A stretch of 64,000 nucleotides of DNA from Squalus acanthias (taxonomy: Eukaryota): positions 88,848,001-88,912,000 of the forward strand of contig CM059432.1 of the NCBI GenBank assembly GCA_030390025.1. The letters are read 5' to 3'. Numbering within the stretch: position 1 is the first letter of the stretch; the number at the start of each line of letters is the position of its first letter. Of this stretch, positions 3,518-60,359 are shown piece after piece. A program made the translations under genes and the position numbers. The notes below the pieces were generated by a model. The model saw only the letters and a program-made list of their open reading frames with translations, did not search any database and was not told the DNA's origin.

Positions 3518-6219
3518 CAGCCAGCATAGATTTGTTAATGGCAAGTTATGTTTAATGAATTTAGTCGAGATTTTTGAAAATGTGACTGATTGGATAAAGG
3601 GAAAGCAGTAGATGTGTCATACATAGATTTTTAGAAGGTGTTCAATAAGGTGTTTTACTCAAAAGTCAACCAGTCTGGTTTATAGTTCACTGACTTTTCC
3701 ATCCAAGATGACTGCTAGCAGTTTGTTAGATAAATTCAGGCATGGTATGAAAGGAAATGTAGCAGCATAGATAGAAAGTTGGTAAAGGAGACCAAAAGAA
3801 TTAGGGTGAATGGGTGTTGCTCGGATTGTAAGAAGATTGGAAGTGGTGTACTCCAGTGGTAATTGTTGGCTCCACTTTTGTTCTTGCATATATATTTGGA
3901 CTTGTGCATAGGGAGCATGATATCAATATTTTCTGATGACATAAAAATAAGCAATAGTGTGGCAGGCTCTAAAAGACTCCAGAAGGCTGTCAGACTGGGC
4001 AGATAGGTGACAGATGCAATTGACTATGGATGTTTGAGGTAATATATTTTGGCAGAAAAGATATTGAAGGATGTGATTCCACATCTTGAGCAACCTAATC
4101 AGCGGTCCTTAAAGGGACCACTGGACACCGCTCATAAAAGACAGTGTCCAGTTATTTTGGACAAAGGGTGAAAACAGGCGCTGAATGAGTGCAGTGCTAA
4201 TAAGACTAGCCTGTTTGAAAATATGCATTTAGCACACAATTTTAGTCCGAATTGCTGATTACCATTATTTGAACTTACCTGGAGGTGCTAAACGGACACC
4301 GTGGCCTAGAAATTCAGCACCGTAGCACCCGATTTTTCGGCGCTACAGGTACCGTTTTGCGTCCAAATTGGTGTCCGCACCGCACACGCACACTTCTGGT
4401 GTGGGTCGCACCGGACGCCATTTTGGTGAGGTCGTTTGTGCCAGCACAGGGAGCATGCAGAGTATGCAGGTCATGACGTCAATCAGCGCGCAAAGCTGAT
4501 TTGATGCCAACGCTGCCATTTTCGACCTCAACACTGGAGCTAATGCCGTCTCTTAACTTTCCACAGCCGAACATGCGTTCAGCAGCACCAAGGACCCCCA
4601 CACCAGCGTTATTTAAAGGATTCATCAACTGCTTTCAGGTTAGTTGCTGATTGACTTTTACTGGCTCTAGTTGAGTTTGTAGAGGTGTTTCTTAGTTTGG
4701 TGTCTTATTTGATGTTGCTGAAGTCTCAACGGAGTGGTGTAGCAGGTTACTTCAAGGCTTCTGCTCGGAACAGTTGCTCCCAGACATGGGTGCTGTAGTT
4801 TGTATCCCCCTTGGCCTGCAGCATGATAAGGAAATTGAGCAGAGGTGACACAGAGGAGGACGAGATACTCGAAGAGGGAGGAGGAGGAGGAGAAGCACTC
4901 TCAGCAGGAGGTCATATCCACCCAGGGTCGTCAGAGAGCAATTCTCCTACCTCAACTTCAGCGAGGAATAGTGCATGCGACATCTCCGCTTCACTAAGGA
5001 GGTGCTCACTGAAATCTGCCACCTGTTGCAGGCAGACCTGCAGTCTCGGAGCAGGGCGAGAACGGCATTGCCACTGGTTGTGAAGGTGAGCGTTGCCATG
5101 AATATTTATACATCGGACTCCTTCCAGGCTGGAGCAGGAGACATTTGCAACATTTCACAGTTCGCGGTTCACTGTTGCATAAGGGAGGTCACCGAGGATA
5201 TGTTTGCAAAGAGAGGTGAATACATTTCATTCACGCTTGCCAGAGAGAAGCAGACAGACAGAGCGAACATGCGGCTTCAAAAGGATAGCAGGCTTCCCCA
5301 TGGTGCAGGGTGCCATTGACTGCACACATGTTGCTTTGTGGGCACCGGATGTGAACTCGGAGATGTACTGAAACCGGAAGGGATTCCACTCCCTCCATGT
5401 CCAGCTGGAGTGCGACCATACTCAGCACATCATGCAAGTCAATGCTCAGTATCCTGGCAGCAGCCATGATGCCTTCATTCTGCAGCAATCCGCTGTACCA
5501 TCTGTATTTGATCCACCATGATAAACCAGAGGTTGACTACTGGGTGACCACATGGCTCATGCAACCCAAGTACACATGGGCAGCATGCATATTTTTTTTT
5601 ACTATTCGCTTATGGGCAAGGCCAGCATTTATTGCCCATCCCTAGTTGCCCTTGAGAAGGTGGTGGTGAGCCGCCTTCTTGAACCGCTGCAGTCCGTGTG
5701 GTGAAGGTACTCCCACAGTGCTGTTAGGGAGGGAGTTCCACGATTTTGACCCAGCGACGATGAAGGATCGGCGCTATACTTCTAAGTCAGGATGGTGTGT
5801 GACTTGGAGGGGAACTTGGAGGTGGTGGTGTTCCTATGCGCCTGCTGCCCTTGTCCTTCTAGGTGGAAGAGGTCGTGGGTTTGGAAGGCACTGCCGAAGA
5901 AGCCTTGGCGAGTTGCTGCAGGGCATCTTGTAGATGGTACACACTGCAACCACGGTATGCAGCGGTAAACCACGGTGGAAGGAGTGAATGTTTAAGGTGG
6001 TAGAAGGGGTGCCAATCAAACGGGTTGCTTTGTCCTGGATGGTGTCGAGCTTCTTGAGTGTTGTTGAAGCTGCACTCATCCAGGCAAGTGGAGAGTATTC
6101 CATCACACTCCTTACTTGTGCCTTGTAGATGGTGGAAAGGCTTTGGGGAGTCGGGAGGTGAGACACTCACCACAGAATACCAAGCATCTGACTTGCTCTT
6201 GTTGCCACAGTATTTATGT

Positions 6220-6970
6220 CGACGTCGATGACAAAGTCCAACACCGCCTTCAGTGTGCCAGTGCAGCCTTCGGTCACCTGAGGAAGAGAGTGTTTGAAGA
6301 CGAGGACCTCAAACCCGGCACTAAGCTCATGGTCTACAGAGCAGCAGTGATACCTGTCCTGCTGTATGCCTCAGAGACATGGACCATGTACAGCAGGCAC
6401 CTCAAAGCACTGGAGAGGCACCACCAATGCTGCATCCGCAAAATCCTGCAAATCCATTGGCAGGATAGGCACACCCATGTCAGTGTTCTTGCTCAGGCCA
6501 ACATCCCCAGCATCGAAGCTTTGACCACGCTCGATCAGCTCCAATGGACGGGTCACATTGTCCACATGCCCGATACGAGACTCTCAAAACAAGCGCTCTA
6601 CTCGGAGCTCCGGCATGGCAAGAGAGCCCCAGGTGGGCAGAGGAAACGCTTCAAGGACACCCTCAAAGCCTCCTTGAAAAAGTGTAACATCCCCATCGAC
6701 ACCTGGGAATCCCTGGCCCAAGACTGCACAAAGTGGAGGAGAAGCATCCGGGAAGGCGCCGAACACCTCGAGTCTCTTCGCCGGGAGTAAGCGGAAGCCA
6801 AGCACAGGCAGCGCAAGGAGCGCACGTCAACCCAAGCACCTGCTCCTTCAACCACTGTCTGCCACACCTGTAGGTCCCGCATTGGACTCATCAGTCACCT
6901 GCGAATTCATTTTTAATGTGGAAGCAAGTCATCCTCGGTTCCGAGGGACTGCCTAAGAAGGGGGGAGAAG
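6220..6970 (+). mobile_element. 5'-truncated RTE (BovB-like) LINE
   Basis: ORF 6116 (TKLMVYRAAVIPVLLYASETWT, GGQRKRFKDTLK), C-terminal zinc-finger remnant, GACTGCCTAAGAAG tail; exact 8-bp TSD ATTTATGT (6212-6219 / 6971-6978). Confidence 0.93.
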
Positions 6971-9350
6971 ATTTATGTGGCTGGTCCAGTTAAGTTTCTG
7001 GTCAATGGTGACCCCCAGGATGTTGTTGGTGGGGGATTCAGCGATGGTAATGCCGTTGAATGTCAAGGGGAGCTGGTTAGACTCTCGCTTGTTGGAGATA
7101 GTCATTGCCTGACACTTCTGTGGCGCGAATGTTACCTGCCACTTATCAGCCCAAGCCTGAATGTCATCCCGGTCTTGTTGCATGCGGGCATGGACTGCTT
7201 CGTTATCTGAGGAGTTGTGAATGGCGCTGAACACTGTGCAGTCATCAGCAAACATCCCCATTTCTGACCTTATGTTGGAGGGACGGTCATTGATGAAGCA
7301 GCTGAAGATGATTGGGCCTAGGACACTGCCCTGAGGAACTCCTGCAGCGATGTCTTGGGGCTGTGATAATTGACCTTCAACCACCACCCTTTGTGCTAGG
7401 TATGACTCCAGCCAGTGGAGCGTTTTCCCCCTGATTCCCATTGACATCAGTTTTACTAGGGCTCCTTGATGCCACACTCGGTCAAATGCTGCCTTGATGT
7501 CAAGGGCAGTCACTCTCACCTCACCTCTGGAATTCAGCTCCTTTGTCCATGTTTGGACCAAGGCTGTAATGAGGTCGGGAGCCGAGTGGTCTTGGCGGAA
7601 CCCAAACTGGGCATCAGTGAGCAGGTTATTGGTGAGTAAGTGCCACTTGATAGCACTGTCGATGACACCTTCTATCACTTTGCTGATGATTGAGAGTAGA
7701 CTGATGGGGCGGTAATTGGCCAGGTTGGATTTGTCCTGCTTATTGTGGACATGACATACCTGGGCAGTTTTCCACATTGTCGGATAGATGCCAGTGTTGT
7801 AGCTGTACTGGAACAGCTTGACTAGAGGCACGGCTAGTTCTGGAGCATAAGTCTTCAGCACGATAGCCGGGATGTTGTCGGGACCCATAGCCTTTGGTGT
7901 ATCCAGTGTGCTCAGCCGTTTCTTGATATCACGTGGAGTGAATCGGCTGAAGACTGGCTTCTGTGATGGTGGGGACCTTGGGAGTAAGCTGATATGGATC
8001 ATCTACTCGGCACTACTGGCTGAAGGTGGTTGCAAACGCTTCAGCCTTGTCTTTTGCACTCACATGCTGGGCTCCACCATCATTGAGGATGGGGATATTC
8101 ATGGAGCCTCCTCCTTCCGTTAGTTGTTTAATGGTCCACCACCATTCACGACTGGATGTGGCAGGACTGCAGAGCTTTGATCTGATCTGTTGATTGTGGG
8201 ATCGCTTAGCCCTGTCTATAGCATGCTGCTTCCGCTTTTTAGCATGCATGTAGTCTTGTGTTGCAGCTTCCCCAGGTTGGCATCTCATTTTTAGGTACGC
8301 CTAGTGCTGCTTCCGGCATGCTCTTCTACACTCCTTATTGAACCAGGGTTGGTCCCCTGGCTTGATGATAATGGTAGAGTGAGGGATATGCCGGGCCATG
8401 AGCTTACATATTGTGGTGGAATACAATTCTGCTGCTGCCCCACAGTTCCTCATGGATGCCCAGTTCTGAATTATCCCATTGAACATGGTGGTAATGCTCC
8501 ACAACACAATGTGAAGACAGGACTTCATCTCCACAATGACTGTGCAATGGTCACTGCTACCAATGCTATCATGGACAGATGCATCTGCGACAGGTAGATT
8601 GGTGAGGACAAGGTCAAGTAGGTTTTTCCCTCGTGTTGGTTCTCTCACCACCTGTCACAGGCCCAGACTGGCAGTTATGTCCTTCAGTGGTGCTACCGAG
8701 CCGCTCTTGGTGATGGACATTGAAGTCCCCCACCCAGAGTACATTCTGTGCCCTTGCTACTCTCAGTGATTCTTCCAAGTGGTGTTCAACATGGAGGAGT
8801 ACTGATTCATCAGCTAAGGGAGGACGGTAGGTGCTAATCAGCAGGAGGTTTCCTTGCCCATGCTTAACCTGAAGCCATGAGACTTCCTGGGGTCCAGAGT
8901 CAATGCTCAGGATTCCCAGGGTATACCACTGTGCCGCCACCCCTGGGATGGTGATGGAGGAGTTTGGGACATTGGCTGAAAGGTATGATTCTGTGAGTGC
9001 AGCTCTCCCAATTTTGGCACAATCCCCCAGATGTTGGTGAGGAGGAGGATTTTGCAGGGTCTGCCATTGCCAAGGTAGATGCCAGGTGGTCCCTCCAGTT
9101 TCATTCTTATTATGTTTTGTAGCGGTTAGTTACAGCTGAGTGGCTTGCTAGGCCATTTCAGAGGGCAGTTAAGAGTCAATCACATTGCTGTGGGTCTGGA
9201 GTCACATATAGGGCAGACCGCCAGACCAGGTAAGGACGTTAGTGAACCAGATGGGTTTTTACGACAATCTGATAGTTACCATTACTGATGCTAGCTTTTT
9301 ATTCCAGATTTATTTAATTAACTGAATTTAAATTCCCCAGCTGCCGTGGT

Positions 9351-9426
9351 GGAATTTGAACTTGCGTCTCTGGATCATTAGCCCAGGCTTCTGGATTACT
9401 AGCGCAGTGATATTACCACTACGCTA
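9351..9426 (-). promoter_or_regulatory. RNA Pol III type-2 internal promoter (A and B boxes) at the LINE 5' end
   Basis: A box TAGCGTAGTGG (9416-9426) fits TRGCNNARYGG; B box GTTCAAATTCC (9351-9361) fits GTTCRANNC. Confidence 0.8.
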
Positions 9427-9653
9427 CCGTTCCCCTATAATGAAAGTTATGCTGCCATATGTAATGTGATCGAGCTGGCCATTGGGGTCCTTAAACAAAG
9501 TTTGGCTGCCTGGGCTGCTCTGGAGGAGCCCTGCAGTATTCACCAGAGCTCGTCTCAAGATTCGTCATGGTCTGCTGCATGCTGCACAACCTCGCCATCA
9601 TGAGGGCACATCCCTTGCCACCAGGTATACTGCGAAGAGCTAAGGAGGAAGAG

Positions 9654-10116
9654 AGAAAGAAAGACTTGCATTTATATAGTGCCTTTCACGACCACTGGAT
9701 GTCTCAAAGCACTTTACAGCCACTGAAGAACTTTTGAAGTGGAGTCACTGTTGCAATGTGGGAAACATGGCAGCCAATTTGCGCACAGCAAGCTCCCTCA
9801 AACAGCAATGTGATAATGACCAGATAATCTGCTTTTATTATGTTGGTTGAGGGATAAATATTGGCCAGGACACCGGGGAGAACTCCCCTGTTCTTCTTCA
9901 AAATAGTGCCATGGGATCTTTTACGTCCACTTGAGAGAGCAGACAGGGCCTCTGTTTAACATCTCATCTGAAAGACGGCACCTCCAACAGTGCAGCACTC
10001 CCTCAGCACTGCTCTGGAGTGTCAGCCTAGCTTTATGTGCTCAAGTCCCTGGAGTAGGACTTGAACCCACAACCTCCTGACTCAGAGGCGAGTGGGCTAC
10101 CAACTGAGCCACAGTT
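9654..10116 (-). mobile_element. tRNA-derived Deu-domain SINE (SacSINE1-like)
   Basis: Head TGGCTCAGTTGG...GGTTCAAGTCC, Deu-type core (GGACGTAAAAGATCCCATGGCACTATT), tail TATATAAATGCAAGTCTTTCTTT; GAAGAG on both sides. Confidence 0.85.
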
Positions 10117-10507
10117 GAAGAGGAAGAGGGGAAGGAAGAGGAGGAGGAAGAGGAATGGAAGAGGCAACCACGACAGCCCCTTTCTGGCCGGGCTGCCAGT
10201 GATTAACTGATACAACTGCGGTACCAGTGAAACCAACCCCAATTCCCCATTCACCCACAGTCCAACACCTTACCTTAACTCTGTTACTGACCATCGCAGC
10301 ATCCTCTTGGCCACAATGCTACAATAAAGGCCACCATTCACAAACAAACATTCCAAACCAATTTTATACATCAATCCATCTAAGATTACATAACAAAGTC
10401 AACTAATCACCCTTGTGCATTCCCTTAGTGCCTGTCTCCCATGTGGCTTTGACTATCCTAGTGCTCCTATGAAGTGCTAGCCCAGTGGCACTGATTTGAC
10501 ACCAGTG

Positions 10508-12620: not shown

Positions 12621-13749
12621 ATGGATGCACTAGTAGGCATTGCCCTTGGAAAACAGCGTGACTTGGAGTATGAACAGCGGTTACACAGAGCAGGACAAGC
12701 TGCTGGAAGAGTGAGGAGGAGGAAGGGGTGAAGGGCTTTCAGCAGGAGGTCATATCCACCCCACATATTCAGCGAGCAATTCTCTTACCTGATCCTCAGC
12801 GAGGAACTAGTGTGTGACGTCTGTGCTTCAATAAGGGCATCCTCACTGAATTCTTCCATCTGCTGCTGCCACAACAGCAACCTCAGAGCAGGGCAAGGAC
12901 CGCATTGCCAGTGGCTGTGAAGTTGACCTTGGCAATGAACTTTTTGCGTCTGGCTCTTTCCAAGTTGGAGCTGGAGATATTTGCAACATCTCACAGTTTA
13001 CCATGCACTGTGCGTGAAGGAAGTCACTAAGGCTCTCTCTTCAAAGAGAGGTGACTACATTTCATTTTCTCTTGTCAGAAACAAGCAGGTGGAGCAAGCA
13101 CACGGCTTCGCTAGGATTGCAGGCTACCCCATGGTGCAGAGTTCCATTGACTGCACGCACATCACTTTGCAGGCACCGCATGTCAACTCTGCCATATACC
13201 TGAACCGAAAGGGATTCCACTCCCTCAACAACCAGCAGCTGATGTGCGACCAGAGCCAGTGAATCATGCAGGTCAATGCCCAATATTCTGGCAGCAGTCA
13301 TGATGCCTTCATTCTGCCGCAGTCCACTGTGCCAGCTGCATTTGAGCCATCACGGCAAACCGAAGAGTGGCTATTGGGTGACCAGGGCTATCCGCTGATG
13401 ACATGACTCCGATGCGCAACCCATGCGCAGAATGCGTACAGTGAAAGCCACGGTTCCACAGGAAATGTGATAGAGCAGATCATTGGCATGCTGAAACAAC
13501 ATTTCCACTGCCTGGACCACCCTGCAGTACTTGGCAGAGTGGATGCCAAGACATGTGGTGGTCCGCTGCATGTAGCACAACCTCGCCATCATGAGGGCAC
13601 AGCTCTTGCCACCAGCTATACAGCGAGCAGCTGAGGAGCAGGAGCATGAGGAGTAGGAAGAGGAGGAATAGGAATGGAGGAGGCAACCTAGACAGCTTCT
13701 TTCTGCCCGGGCTGTGCGCAAAGATCTCATCCAAGTGAGATACCAGTAA
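12621..13749 (+). pseudogene. HARBI1-like transposase pseudogene (copy 2)
   Basis: ORF 12981 ([29 protein letters not shown]), WLLGDQGYPL, acidic tail; multiple stops and frameshifts. Confidence 0.9.
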
Positions 13750-15769: not shown

Positions 15770-16250
15770 TGCCTGGATCGATACACCTTCAACAACACTA
15801 TCCAAGAGACAGCAGTCCGCTTGATTGGCACCCATCCACTGGCTTAAACATCCACTCCTTCCACCACTGGCACGCCATGGCTGCTGTGTGTATTTACAGG
15901 ATGCACTGCAGCAACTCGCCAAGTCTTCTTTGGCAGCACCTCCCAAACCTGCGCTCTCCACCACCTAGTTTCTGTCATGGAGCCACACTTATGGGAACAC
16001 CATCATCTTCAAGTTCCCCTCCAAGTCACACATCATCCTGACTTGGACATATATCGCCCTTCCTTTATTGTCACTGGTTTAAAATCATGGAACTCCCTCC
16101 CTATATAGCATTGTGGGGGCACTTTCACCACACAGACTGCAGTGGTTCAAGAAGAAAGCTCACCACCACCACCTTCTAAAGGGCCACTAAGGATGGGCAA
16201 TACATGCCAACCTTGCCAGCAATGCCAACGTACCAAAAATGAATTAAAAA
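15770..16250 (+). mobile_element. Diverged 3' fragment of the LINE family seen at 5593-9435
   Basis: LNIHSFHH...VCIYRMHCSNSP is homologous to ORF 5834; GGATGGGCAATACATGCC tail plus an A-run. Confidence 0.85.
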
Positions 16251-46860: not shown

Positions 46861-47835
46861 CATATCCCTTAATACCCTTATTTATCAAATATGTATCCTC
46901 TTTAAACACCTCAGCCTAGAAATTCAGTTGCGTAGCGCCCGTTGTTTGGGCACTATGGTTGCTGAATTGGGACCAAAATGGCATCCGAGCACCGGGAGCA
47001 CACTTCTGCGGTGGGCGGCGCCGGATGCCATCTTGGTGAGAGCAATAGAGCAGCCGTTAGGAGCGTGCGCTATAAGTATGGTAAGTAGGCAGATCGTCAC
47101 GTCAATCAGCGTGCAATGCTGATTTGACGCCAGCACTGTCATTTTCGTCATCAGCGCTGGAGCTAATACCCTCTCCTCACCTTGCACAGCTGAACATGCA
47201 TTCAACAGCAGAAAGGACCCCCCCCCCCTGCCACCAGCGATATTTAAAGGGATCATCACCAACTTTCAGGTAACTTGCTTTTTGATTTCTACTGGCTCTG
47301 TGTAAGTTTGTGGAAATGTTTGGGGCTTTCTAGAGTTATTTAAAGTTGGTGAGGTGACAGGGAGTGGGGCTGCAAGTGGAGAAGGCCTTGCTTGTGACTT
47401 CAAAGGTTCTGGTCAGACCACTTGCTCCCAGTCATGGGTGCTTTAGTTGTCATCCCTCTTGGCCTGCAGCATGACAGGGAGATGGAGCAGAGGCAGCAAA
47501 GAAGAGGACAAGCTGCTCACAGAGGAAGGAGGAGGAGGGCGCTCAGAAGGAGACCTTACTCACCTAGGGTCTTCTGACAGCAATTTTCTAACCTCAACCT
47601 GAGCCTGGAGCATTGTGTGAGGCATCTGAGCTTTACGAAAGAGGTGCTCACAGAACTCTGTGACATTTTACAACCAGACCTGCAGCTTCAGGGTAAGCAC
47701 AGCACTGCCAATGGCAATGAAGGTGACCATGGCCCTGAATTTCTTTTCATCGGGATCCTTCCAGGTTGGAGCAGGTGATATCTGTAACATCTCACCATTC
47801 GACATCCACTGCTGCATAAGAGAGGTGATAGATGT

Positions 47836-51706: not shown

Positions 51707-53107
51707 CTTTATGCCAGGAGAGAGGACTTCATTGTCTTCTCTCTGACCAGAGAGAAGCAGATGGAGCATGCACGTGGCTTTGCCAGGATAGTAGACTTCC
51801 CATGCTACAGGGCGCTATCGACTGCACGCACGTGGCTTTGTGGGCACCGTATAGAAATAATGAGATGTCCCGCCGCAAAGGTTACCGCTCGTTGAATGTG
51901 CAGTTGGTGTGCGACCATGCTCAGCACATCATGATGGTGAATGCCCAGTATCCTGGCAGCAGTCATTCTGTGCCAGTATGCTGTTCCCTCAGTCTTTGAG
52001 CCAGAAAGACAAACCAGATGGTGTCTACTGGGCGACAAGGGCTATCCCTTGACCACCTGGCTCATCGCTCCGCAACCCAACCACACGTGGCCAACATGCG
52101 TACAACGGTAGCCAATCTGCCACACAAAACATCATAGAGCAAACCATTTGGCTGCTGAAGCAACGGTTCTGCTGCCTGGCCCACTCTGGAGGAGCCCTGT
52201 AGTACTCATGTCCTGATTCGTCTTGGTCTGCTGTATCCTCCACAACCTGGCCATCATGAGGGCACAGCCCTTGCCATCAGGGATATGGCCACCAGCTCAG
52301 GAGAAGGAGGAGGAAGAGGAGGAGGAGGAGGAGGAGGAAGAGCAGGAAGCAGAAGAGGAGGAGGAGGAAGCGGAAGTTTGTAGGCAACCCAGACAGCCCC
52401 TTTCTGGCCGGGATATCCGGGATCGAATCATCCACCTGCGGTACCAGTGAACGCAACCCCTAATTCTCCATTCAACAACAGTCCCACACCTTACCTTCCC
52501 TCTGTTACTGACCATCACAGCGTCCTCTTGGCCACAATGCTGAAATAAAAGCCATGACAAAGCAAACATTCCAATCAAACTTTACCCATCTGTCCATCCA
52601 ATATTACATCAAAAAATCAACTCATCACCCTTGTGCATTCCCTTAGTGACTGTCTTGCATGCGCCTTTGCCTATCCTAGTGCTCCTACGCAGTGCTACCC
52701 CAGTGCCTGCAGCATGACTGGTGGAAGGCTGCTGACTTTCAGTGGGGGAGACTGCAGATGGACTTGCAGGATGACCTCGAGGAGCTCTGGGCCGAGTAGG
52801 CCCGGCTTTGGACTGTACCATCTCGGCATGGGCGGCAACAGTCAGGCAACAGTATGGACACTGGGGGAGTGGCAGTGGTGGGAGGACAAGTGCTGTCATC
52901 CTGAGAGAGGACAGCAGGTTTGTCCTCCACAGATCCATTGTCACTCCCCTGGGGCAACCTCTCAGCAATCCTAGTAATCTGCAGAGTACAAACTGCTGGA
53001 TTGTTGTGACAGCCTGCAAACCCCTTTCAACACTGGTAAACCCAGCCATGATGGCAGCAGTCTGTGTTTGCATGACTTCAGTCTGAGCTTCCATTGCAGC
53101 ACTCAGA

Positions 53108-57573: not shown

Positions 57574-58018
57574 TGGCTCAGTTGGTAGTTGTGGGATGGG
57601 CAATAAATGCTGGCCTTGCCAGTCTCACCCACATCCCAGGAACAAATTAAAAAAAACCCTGCTAGTTGCTCTAGCATGTAATCTAGTCTGACACTTTAGT
57701 GCAGTAGTGAGGGAGTGCTGTATTGTTGGAGGTGTTTCAAATGAGATGTTAAATCAAGGCCTCCCTGTTCAGCTGGATATCAAACATTCCGTGGTGCTAG
57801 TCAAAGATGAGCAGCAAATTCTCCCATTTCTCCATCCATTAATACCACCAAAAACAAATGAATTCATTTACTGTTTGTGGGTCCTTGCTAAGGCTGCTGA
57901 GTTTGCCTACCTAACAACATTGACTGCGCTTCAAACGGAATCCATTGGTTGTAAAGGGCTTTGGAATGTCCTGAGGATGTGATAAGTTACTATGCAAATG
58001 CAATTTCTTCCCTTCTTT
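57574..58018 (+). mobile_element. Old Deu-SINE with a short LINE-tail insert (~57592-57657)
   Basis: TGGCTCAGTTGGTAG head, degenerate Deu core and GCAAATGCAATTTCTT tail; the insert GGGATGGGCAATAAATGCTGGCCTTGCC...A8 matches the tail of the 5593 LINE. Confidence 0.7.
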
Positions 58019-59898: not shown

Positions 59899-60359
59899 AC
59901 AAAGAAAGACTTGCATTTATATAGCGCCTTTCACGATCACCAGATGTCTCAAAGTGCTTTACAGCCAATGAAGTACTTTTGGAGTGTAGTCACTGTTGTA
60001 ATGTGAGAAAACACAGCAGCCAATTTGTGCACAGCAAGCTCCCACAAACAGCAATGTGATAATCACTTTTTGTTATGTTGATTGAGGGATAAACATTGGC
60101 CTTGACACCGGGGATAACTCCCCTGCTCTTCTTCGAAATAGTGCCATTGGTTCTTTTATGTCCACCTGAAAGAGTGGACGGGGCCTTGGTTTAACATCTT
60201 ATTCGAAAGGCGGCACCTCTGACAGTGCAGCACACCCTCTGCACTGCACTGGAGTGTCAGCCGAGATTTTTTGTGCTCAAGTCCCTGGAGTGGGACTCTG
60301 AACCCACAAACTTCTGACTCAGAGGCAAGTGTGCTGCCCACTGAGCCACAGCTGACACT
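59899..60359 (-). mobile_element. Full-length Deu-domain SINE (SacSINE1-like) inserted in an older + strand SINE
   Basis: Highly similar to 9654-10116; host SINE pieces at ~59857-59898, 60360-60406 and 63862-63960. Confidence 0.88.

Follow-up and report, generated by a model that had tools for sequence, protein, structure and literature searches.

A tRNA-headed 5′ UTR with a conserved core in elasmobranch Zenon LINEs and its relation to probable SINE-like deletion derivatives

A SINE-like segment upstream of a LINE reading frame in Squalus acanthias raises the question of what such a segment does for the LINE and whether SINEs could be derived from it. The preliminary description of the locus had proposed that the segment at 9105-9350 serves as the LINE 5′ UTR, that it may recruit ribosomes to an uncapped Pol III RNA, and that a SINE with the same head, body and tail could arise by internal deletion, which would give conserved SINE core domains a function. 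We followed up these proposals in the window, by which we mean the whole 64,000-nucleotide stretch of DNA that was analysed.

The minus strand from 9435 to 5593 holds a single decayed retrotransposon copy with one ORF, in the order tRNA-like head, linker, core, A-rich spacer, AUG, APE-RT ORF and A tail. The head (9352-9435, minus strand like all other parts of the element) forms its 5′ end, as judged from box patterns and from the starts of seven of seven elasmobranch Zenon consensus sequences. Its A box at 9426-9416 and B box at 9361-9352 were assigned from the usual box patterns; ARAGORN called no tRNA anywhere in the 64-kb window, the head included. An anticodon-arm-like stem with a 7-nt loop at 9385-9410 is kept in the species consensus sequences by eye. 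The head is followed by an AT-rich linker 3′ of the B box (9270-9351), with a length that differs by eye between species consensus sequences, by the conserved body core (9131-9269; 155 nt in the consensus), delimited by eye from the consensus comparison, and by an A-rich spacer of species-variable length (9105-9130). The three motifs quoted in the preliminary description do all lie on the minus strand within 9105-9350, between the B box and the AUG at 9104-9102 that it had named as the start and whose frame with the endonuclease we counted. The 5′ part of the decayed ORF (6971-9104) was recognized by the Pfam profiles RVT_1 (E 5e-38) and Exo_endo_phos_2 (E 6e-4, which is below that profile's cut-off). 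The ORF is interrupted by a nested later insertion of 759 nt (6212-6970, plus strand), a fragment of a different retroelement that is presumably RTE-like. It has an 8-bp target duplication, and a joint 6211/6971 that skips it, with 8 letters fitting both sides, was present in four of four sequencing runs. Reading frames place the 3′ part of the ORF at 5642-6211 with a stop codon at 5644-5642, followed by the 3′ UTR and A tail (5593-5641), of which a part near 5615 is missing in the window copy, with loose ends at 5615 in four of four runs. A second, 5′-truncated copy of the LINE 3′ end lies at 15795-16217 on the plus strand (78% identical over 438 nt).

The element sits in a copy of a DNA-transposon gene, which we assume to be Harbinger-like, and the left flank (4901-5592, plus strand) as well as the right flank (9436-9636, plus strand) were assigned to it by alignment to a paralogue. 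The target-site duplication is 3 bp long, TAT at 5590-5592 and at 9436-9438, and overlaps a T run on the left. Once joined, the flanks align across the insertion site with the paralogue, which lies at 12739-13644, at 73% identity over some 930 nt. Since the rejoined flanks align through the site and TAT is found on both sides, head, body and ORF were inserted as one unit. Decayed copies of the transposon gene, 68-73% alike, are found at 4901-5592 with 9436-9636, at 12739-13644, at 51712-52317 and at 47543-47826.

The identity of the element came from a 24-nt motif of the body with five exact occurrences in the supplementary data of Stuart et al. 2026 (PMC13343379), a survey that defines Zenon by an absent ORF1 and a poly-A tail and states that elasmobranch Zenon is absent from every repeat repository. 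In these data elasmobranch Zenon is represented by seven consensus sequences of five species, and by eye, over their first 400 nt, all of them open with head and body; their starts coincide with the first base of the head or lie a few bases from it. The window copy is closest to SquAca_Zenon-1. By eye the two are colinear over the first 400 nt, and in the first 200 nt of these about 10 sites are substituted and one gap of 8 nt is present. Compared with SquAca_Zenon-1 by eye the window copy has lost 24 nt in the core, is shorter by about 8 nt near 9277 and carries an 8-nt duplication near 9212, both also visible in contig alignments. ORF1 is absent, a 330-nt UTR whose longest upstream AUG frame has 16 codons being followed directly by the APE and RT remains, and the copy ends in nine A at 5600-5592, an A run also being present in a lone tail at 57648-57657. 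Judged from sequence, the LINE whose 5′ UTR is formed by 9105-9350 is an elasmobranch Zenon element of the CR1 group with one APE-RT ORF and an A tail, and the UTR assignment of the preliminary description thus holds across the family. With head and body present in seven consensus sequences, a one-off insertion of a SINE ahead of a truncated LINE was ruled out.

The published elements (SquAca_Zenon-1 to -3, CarCar, RhiTyp, ScyCan and HypSab; PMC13343379) are the same family as the one described here, with one ORF, no ORF1, an A tail and about 3.3 kb, and we found no family-level difference. The family is therefore already published; the SINE-like leader, its core and its derivatives are what the text of that paper leaves undescribed. 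Its main text gave zero matches for tRNA, polymerase, promoter and non-autonomous, and its preprint zero for the first three of these terms. A search of the open-access literature, with subscription journals and Repbase Reports outside its scope, found no publication describing a shark Zenon with a tRNA head or a SINE derived from it. A public gene model of a shark, CWC25 homolog by name, opens with about 120 residues of the Zenon LINE ORF and is probably mis-joined.

Outside the elasmobranch elements the body was not found. Neither head nor body occurs in the three hagfish and coelacanth Zenon consensus sequences (three of three, first 400 nt, by eye). The 24-nt motif gave zero exact matches in metagenome, viral and prokaryote contigs and zero matches in the main texts of papers. 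Protein searches with the RT gave relatives of at most 46% identity. Eighty distant LINE loci gave no UTR match (best E 0.26), no tail match and no tRNA call; an A/B-box pattern applied to the same loci is void because it also missed the head in the window. On this evidence the body appears to be specific to elasmobranch Zenon.

Nor did the body match a named conserved SINE domain in tests with short motifs on the damaged window copy. A Deu motif had no match in 9105-9350 and a control match in a neighbouring SINE copy at 9909-9922. A 19-nt motif of the 66-bp Meta domain of MetaSINEs, expected right after the head, had none at 3 mismatches, and the Meta consensus (PMC7245038 supplement) is unlike the body by eye. 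The UCON3 motif had no match at 3 mismatches, while the V domain motif, taken from bivalve V-SINEs, had two chance matches in the window and none in the body. The CORE motif was likewise without a match in the body, and the sole faintly CORE-like stretch of the consensus, some 130 nt 3′ of the B box, falls in the 24 nt lost here. The window holds three Deu-type SINE copies, presumably SacSINE1-like, at 9656-10118 (minus), 59901-60355 (minus) and 57577-58010 (plus), the first two being 85% identical. SacSINE1/Deu was rejected as an identity of the body, which aligns with two Deu-type copies at shuffle level only (121 of 300 and 298 of 300 shuffles scored as high). As Deu, Meta, V and UCON3 were not matched in these short-motif tests, and CORE not in the part of the body retained here, the earlier suggestion that conserved SINE cores gain a function from this LINE does not follow.

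To look at short derivatives of the element we compared four of 24 sequencing runs over 5570-9469. Among the best 15 of 6,191 joints, ten lead from the 3′ end of the body (9124-9163) to the tail (5645-5691) and skip the ORF, three skip the nested insertion and serve as a positive control, and two are internal to the ORF. The body-to-tail joints are carried by 73 contigs in run X1, 84 in X13 and 9 in X15, compared with 28, 34 and 6 for the positive control, contigs that yield no copy number, start or strand and that were read at the body-tail joint, the linkage of head and body being seen in the LINE. X15 is only guessed to be RNA and its depth and joints were not taken as evidence for expression. 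The tail is entered at various points (5652, 5672 and 5677-5691), and two classes of joints have 3-4 letters that fit both sides. An additional joint, 5728/9068, retains remnants of both the start and the end of the ORF, as is predicted by deletion from the LINE. In eight of the ten body-to-tail rows the core is kept to about 9124-9139, the end of the last hairpin, two of these with a diverged body end as in-between letters; the other two (9152 and 9153) cut into that hairpin. Microhomology, and not need, could be the reason why the breakpoints cluster. Over the body the depth is 2-10 times as high as over the adjacent ORF start in X1, X13 and X15, although contig depth is not copy number and the window copy is gappy there. 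In X22, raw reads of another organism, 170 reads aligned and two loose-end rows resemble body-to-tail joins, too few to use. ORF-internal deletions of 475 nt (7714-8190) and 45 nt (7807-7853) are among the best-supported joints of X1 and possibly mark amplified deleted subfamilies.

The route from LINE to SINE by internal deletion is supported by these joints at several breakpoints, as a variant of a known route with the head coming first; a head on the deleted copies is presumed from its linkage to the body in the LINE. The lone tail cited earlier is present at 57592-57657 on the plus strand (57593-57620 is identical at 28 of 28 positions to 5615-5642), and it was discarded as evidence for a head-body-tail SINE, being a 66-nt 5′-truncated piece of tail that was inserted into the head of a Deu-type SINE, an unrelated element.

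The order of events may also have been the reverse. A pre-existing tRNA SINE with this body could have parasitized Zenon, and a template switch could have moved its head and body onto the ORF, so that some short elements are sisters or ancestors of the UTR, with later deletions still possible. We regard this as a serious possibility short of an even chance. It fits with the hagfish and coelacanth Zenon starts without head or body and with the 0 of 80 distant LINE loci that match the UTR at E <0.26. It also fits with Persaeus of moths, which carries a Zenon 5′ UTR and yet has no tRNA homology or Pol III promoter (PMC6740152). From these observations the head must have been gained at some point, and module exchange by template switching is the standard model (PMC5499810, PMC4824008). 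Against SINEs coming first, the several tail entry points (5728 among them) and the joint that retains the ORF start form a pattern of repeated deletion, and no SINE combining this body with a different tail was found among the loose ends listed (24 of 11,721).

The core, which most of the listed derivatives keep, is by eye the most conserved part of the leader. Relative to SquAca_Zenon-1 its 155 sites show 3 substitutions in ScyCan, 4 in CarCar, 5 in HypSab and 8 in RhiTyp and no indels, while head and linkers do carry indels between species, and from the AUG onward 7 of 44 sites differ between SquAca_Zenon-1 and HypSab; these figures, as well as the pair changes and the AUG frame below, were counted by eye. 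Four small hairpins are predicted in the core, at 9257-9245, 9227-9193, 9192-9181 (with a GNRA-type loop) and 9161-9136 (pair probabilities 0.56-1.0), and their stems are almost invariant by eye across the five species. Among the 14 variable core sites there is by eye only one clear compensatory change; it falls in a fifth stem, lost in the window copy, in which a wobble and a broken pair are seen as well. In the damaged window copy neither the body (z -0.17) nor the core (z -0.43) nor the whole UTR (z -1.36) folds better than shuffles. Better values were obtained for the first 80 nt of the head (z -3.1), for 9374-9295 (z -3.6) and for several 149-nt windows of the ORF (7100-9000, minus strand; z -2.2 to -4.3 in 4 of 13). 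Rfam gave one chance match (E 0.32) and no family at a meaningful score.

The missing folding signal of the window copy would suit a core without any function, its likeness across species being due to slow shark evolution or to a recent spread of the element, as would the mutual likeness of more than 84% of all elasmobranch Zenon consensus sequences (PMC13343379). We consider this very improbable since, by eye, conservation of the core greatly exceeds that of head, linkers and ORF start in the same sequences. We infer that the core is constrained for something that LINE and derivatives alike would need.

The sense strand of the element has no run of at least four T in 3,032 nt, where 4.7 are expected from mononucleotide shuffles (P 0.006); with dinucleotide shuffles, from which 2.2 are expected, the absence is not significant (P 0.07). 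The triplet TTT occurs 9 times compared with 48-55 times for the A, C and G triplets, and is threefold depleted along the ORF, whereas each of five CR1 fragments in the window has 1-5 T runs. On circumstantial evidence we consider it somewhat probable that the full Zenon RNA is made by Pol III. The coding RNA could instead be a capped Pol II transcript with the core as an internal Pol II promoter or start region, the A and B boxes serving the short derivatives only. LINE 5′ UTRs usually hold Pol II promoters (PMC5786205, PMC6740152), and the shuffle test that keeps dinucleotides leaves the T-run absence at its marginal value. We nevertheless think a Pol II origin unlikely, given that all seven consensus sequences start at or near the first base of the head and given the TTT depletion set against the T runs of the CR1 fragments.

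Translation of the RNA would have to pass upstream AUGs, five in the window copy and, by eye, eight in SquAca_Zenon-1. In the stingray consensus HypSab the AUG lies 92 nt before the Asn-Ile-Trp codons of the endonuclease and out of frame with them (by eye), a result that rests on HypSab as the one ungapped consensus visible that far. The four other consensus sequences are colinear with HypSab for the 44-60 nt visible past the AUG. In the window copy the AUG lies 69 nt before the same codons and in frame, because of deletions of its own just after the AUG. The AUG of SquAca_Zenon-2 also reads in frame, and automated consensus sequences can slip by one base. Upstream, the endonuclease frame of HypSab is open, arginine-rich and AUG-free. 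The frame that begins at the HypSab AUG overlaps the start of the endonuclease but is not in frame with it (window equivalent 9035-9104, minus strand). Protein searches, with four partial matches for the N-terminal part and no match to the 45 residues that follow the AUG, did not point to a start codon, and neither did the 'top ORF2 length' values of the PMC13343379 supplement; two gene-model matches look patched and were excluded as evidence on it. The APE-RT protein may start at a non-AUG codon or be reached by a frameshift, as far as the consensus frames go.

Two functions of the core are ranked jointly first, each of them tentatively. Ribosome binding is one candidate and would account for translation past the upstream AUGs. 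The strong conservation of the core, the upstream AUGs and the out-of-frame AUG of HypSab speak for it; the folding at shuffle level in the window copy and the presence of the core in non-coding derivatives speak against it. The other is a role in cis outside translation, with the core stabilizing or exporting the Pol III RNA, aiding transcription or binding the RT particle, the RNA being translated inefficiently; this is an equally tentative possibility. The eight of ten listed body-to-tail rows that retain the core to the end of the last hairpin speak for this second role, although the derivatives have nothing to translate, and Kojima 2018 has speculated that conserved LINE 5′ UTR pieces in SINEs bind transcription regulators (PMC5786205). 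Such a role leaves unexplained how protein is made from an RNA that has no cap, eight upstream AUGs and perhaps not one AUG in frame.

Taken together we favour, with moderate confidence, an explanation in which a tRNA-headed Zenon UTR with a conserved core belongs to an element transcribed by Pol III that yields SINEs by one internal deletion. A Zenon ancestor would have acquired the tRNA-like head, with or without the core, and the RNA of the full element would be made by Pol III and hence be uncapped. A single internal deletion, probably through a template jump of the RT at 3-4 nt of microhomology, would then give a complete tRNA-headed SINE, one deletion being sufficient because the head is already on the LINE. 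The core would be a string of small hairpins required by the coding element and by its non-coding derivatives. If it bound ribosomes, the uncapped LINE RNA could be translated past its upstream AUGs, and the short derivatives could meet newly made RT. The full version, in which a Pol III-transcribed coding Zenon recruits ribosomes through its core, starts APE-RT without an in-frame AUG or via a frameshift and sheds deletion SINEs that capture RT at ribosomes, is one that we hold to be unlikely as a whole.

If true, this version would reveal the role of a SINE body in one family. A coding LINE and SINE-like offspring that share head, body and tail make the origin and the job of a SINE body testable by mutation, in an element that is abundant in sharks and rays, and Pol III transcription, should it hold, would make the element a natural example of a Pol III RNA with a need for translation. 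For the widespread CORE, Deu, Meta and V domains nothing follows from the result.

Both halves of the deletion route are already in print, namely that SINE bodies derive from LINE 5′ UTRs (PMC5786205) and that Zenon sheds internally deleted derivatives (PMC6740152). The Persaeus SIDEs that Wang et al. 2019 (PMC6740152) describe for lepidopteran Zenon resemble the shark derivatives in having the 5′ as well as the 3′ end of Zenon and in their repeated internal deletions at short direct repeats. They differ in that they are described there as lacking tRNA homology and a Pol III promoter, whereas the shark deletion product would carry A and B boxes and thus have SINE2 anatomy. In the bipartite-LINE model of Kojima 2018, with Bov-tA/Bov-B and SINE2-1_ACar/Vingi as examples, the SINE body likewise comes from a LINE 5′ UTR and the tail from the 3′ end of that LINE, but the tRNA head is added after the deletion and the LINEs are RTE and Vingi only, whereas in the shark the head is on an autonomous CR1-group element (PMC5786205). 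SacSINE1 and the Deu-SINEs of sharks are also tRNA-headed shark retroposons, and Deu-type copies adjoin the element in the window; SacSINE1 has an L2 tail (PMC5499810), and the Deu-type copies align with the Zenon body at shuffle level only. R2 and L1Tc (PMC3383444) share with the proposed shark Zenon RNA the need to translate an uncapped LINE transcript, and the 5′ UTR of L1Tc has been proposed to be IRES-like; in those elements the uncapped end arises from ribozyme cleavage of a longer transcript, whereas that of shark Zenon would come from transcription by Pol III.
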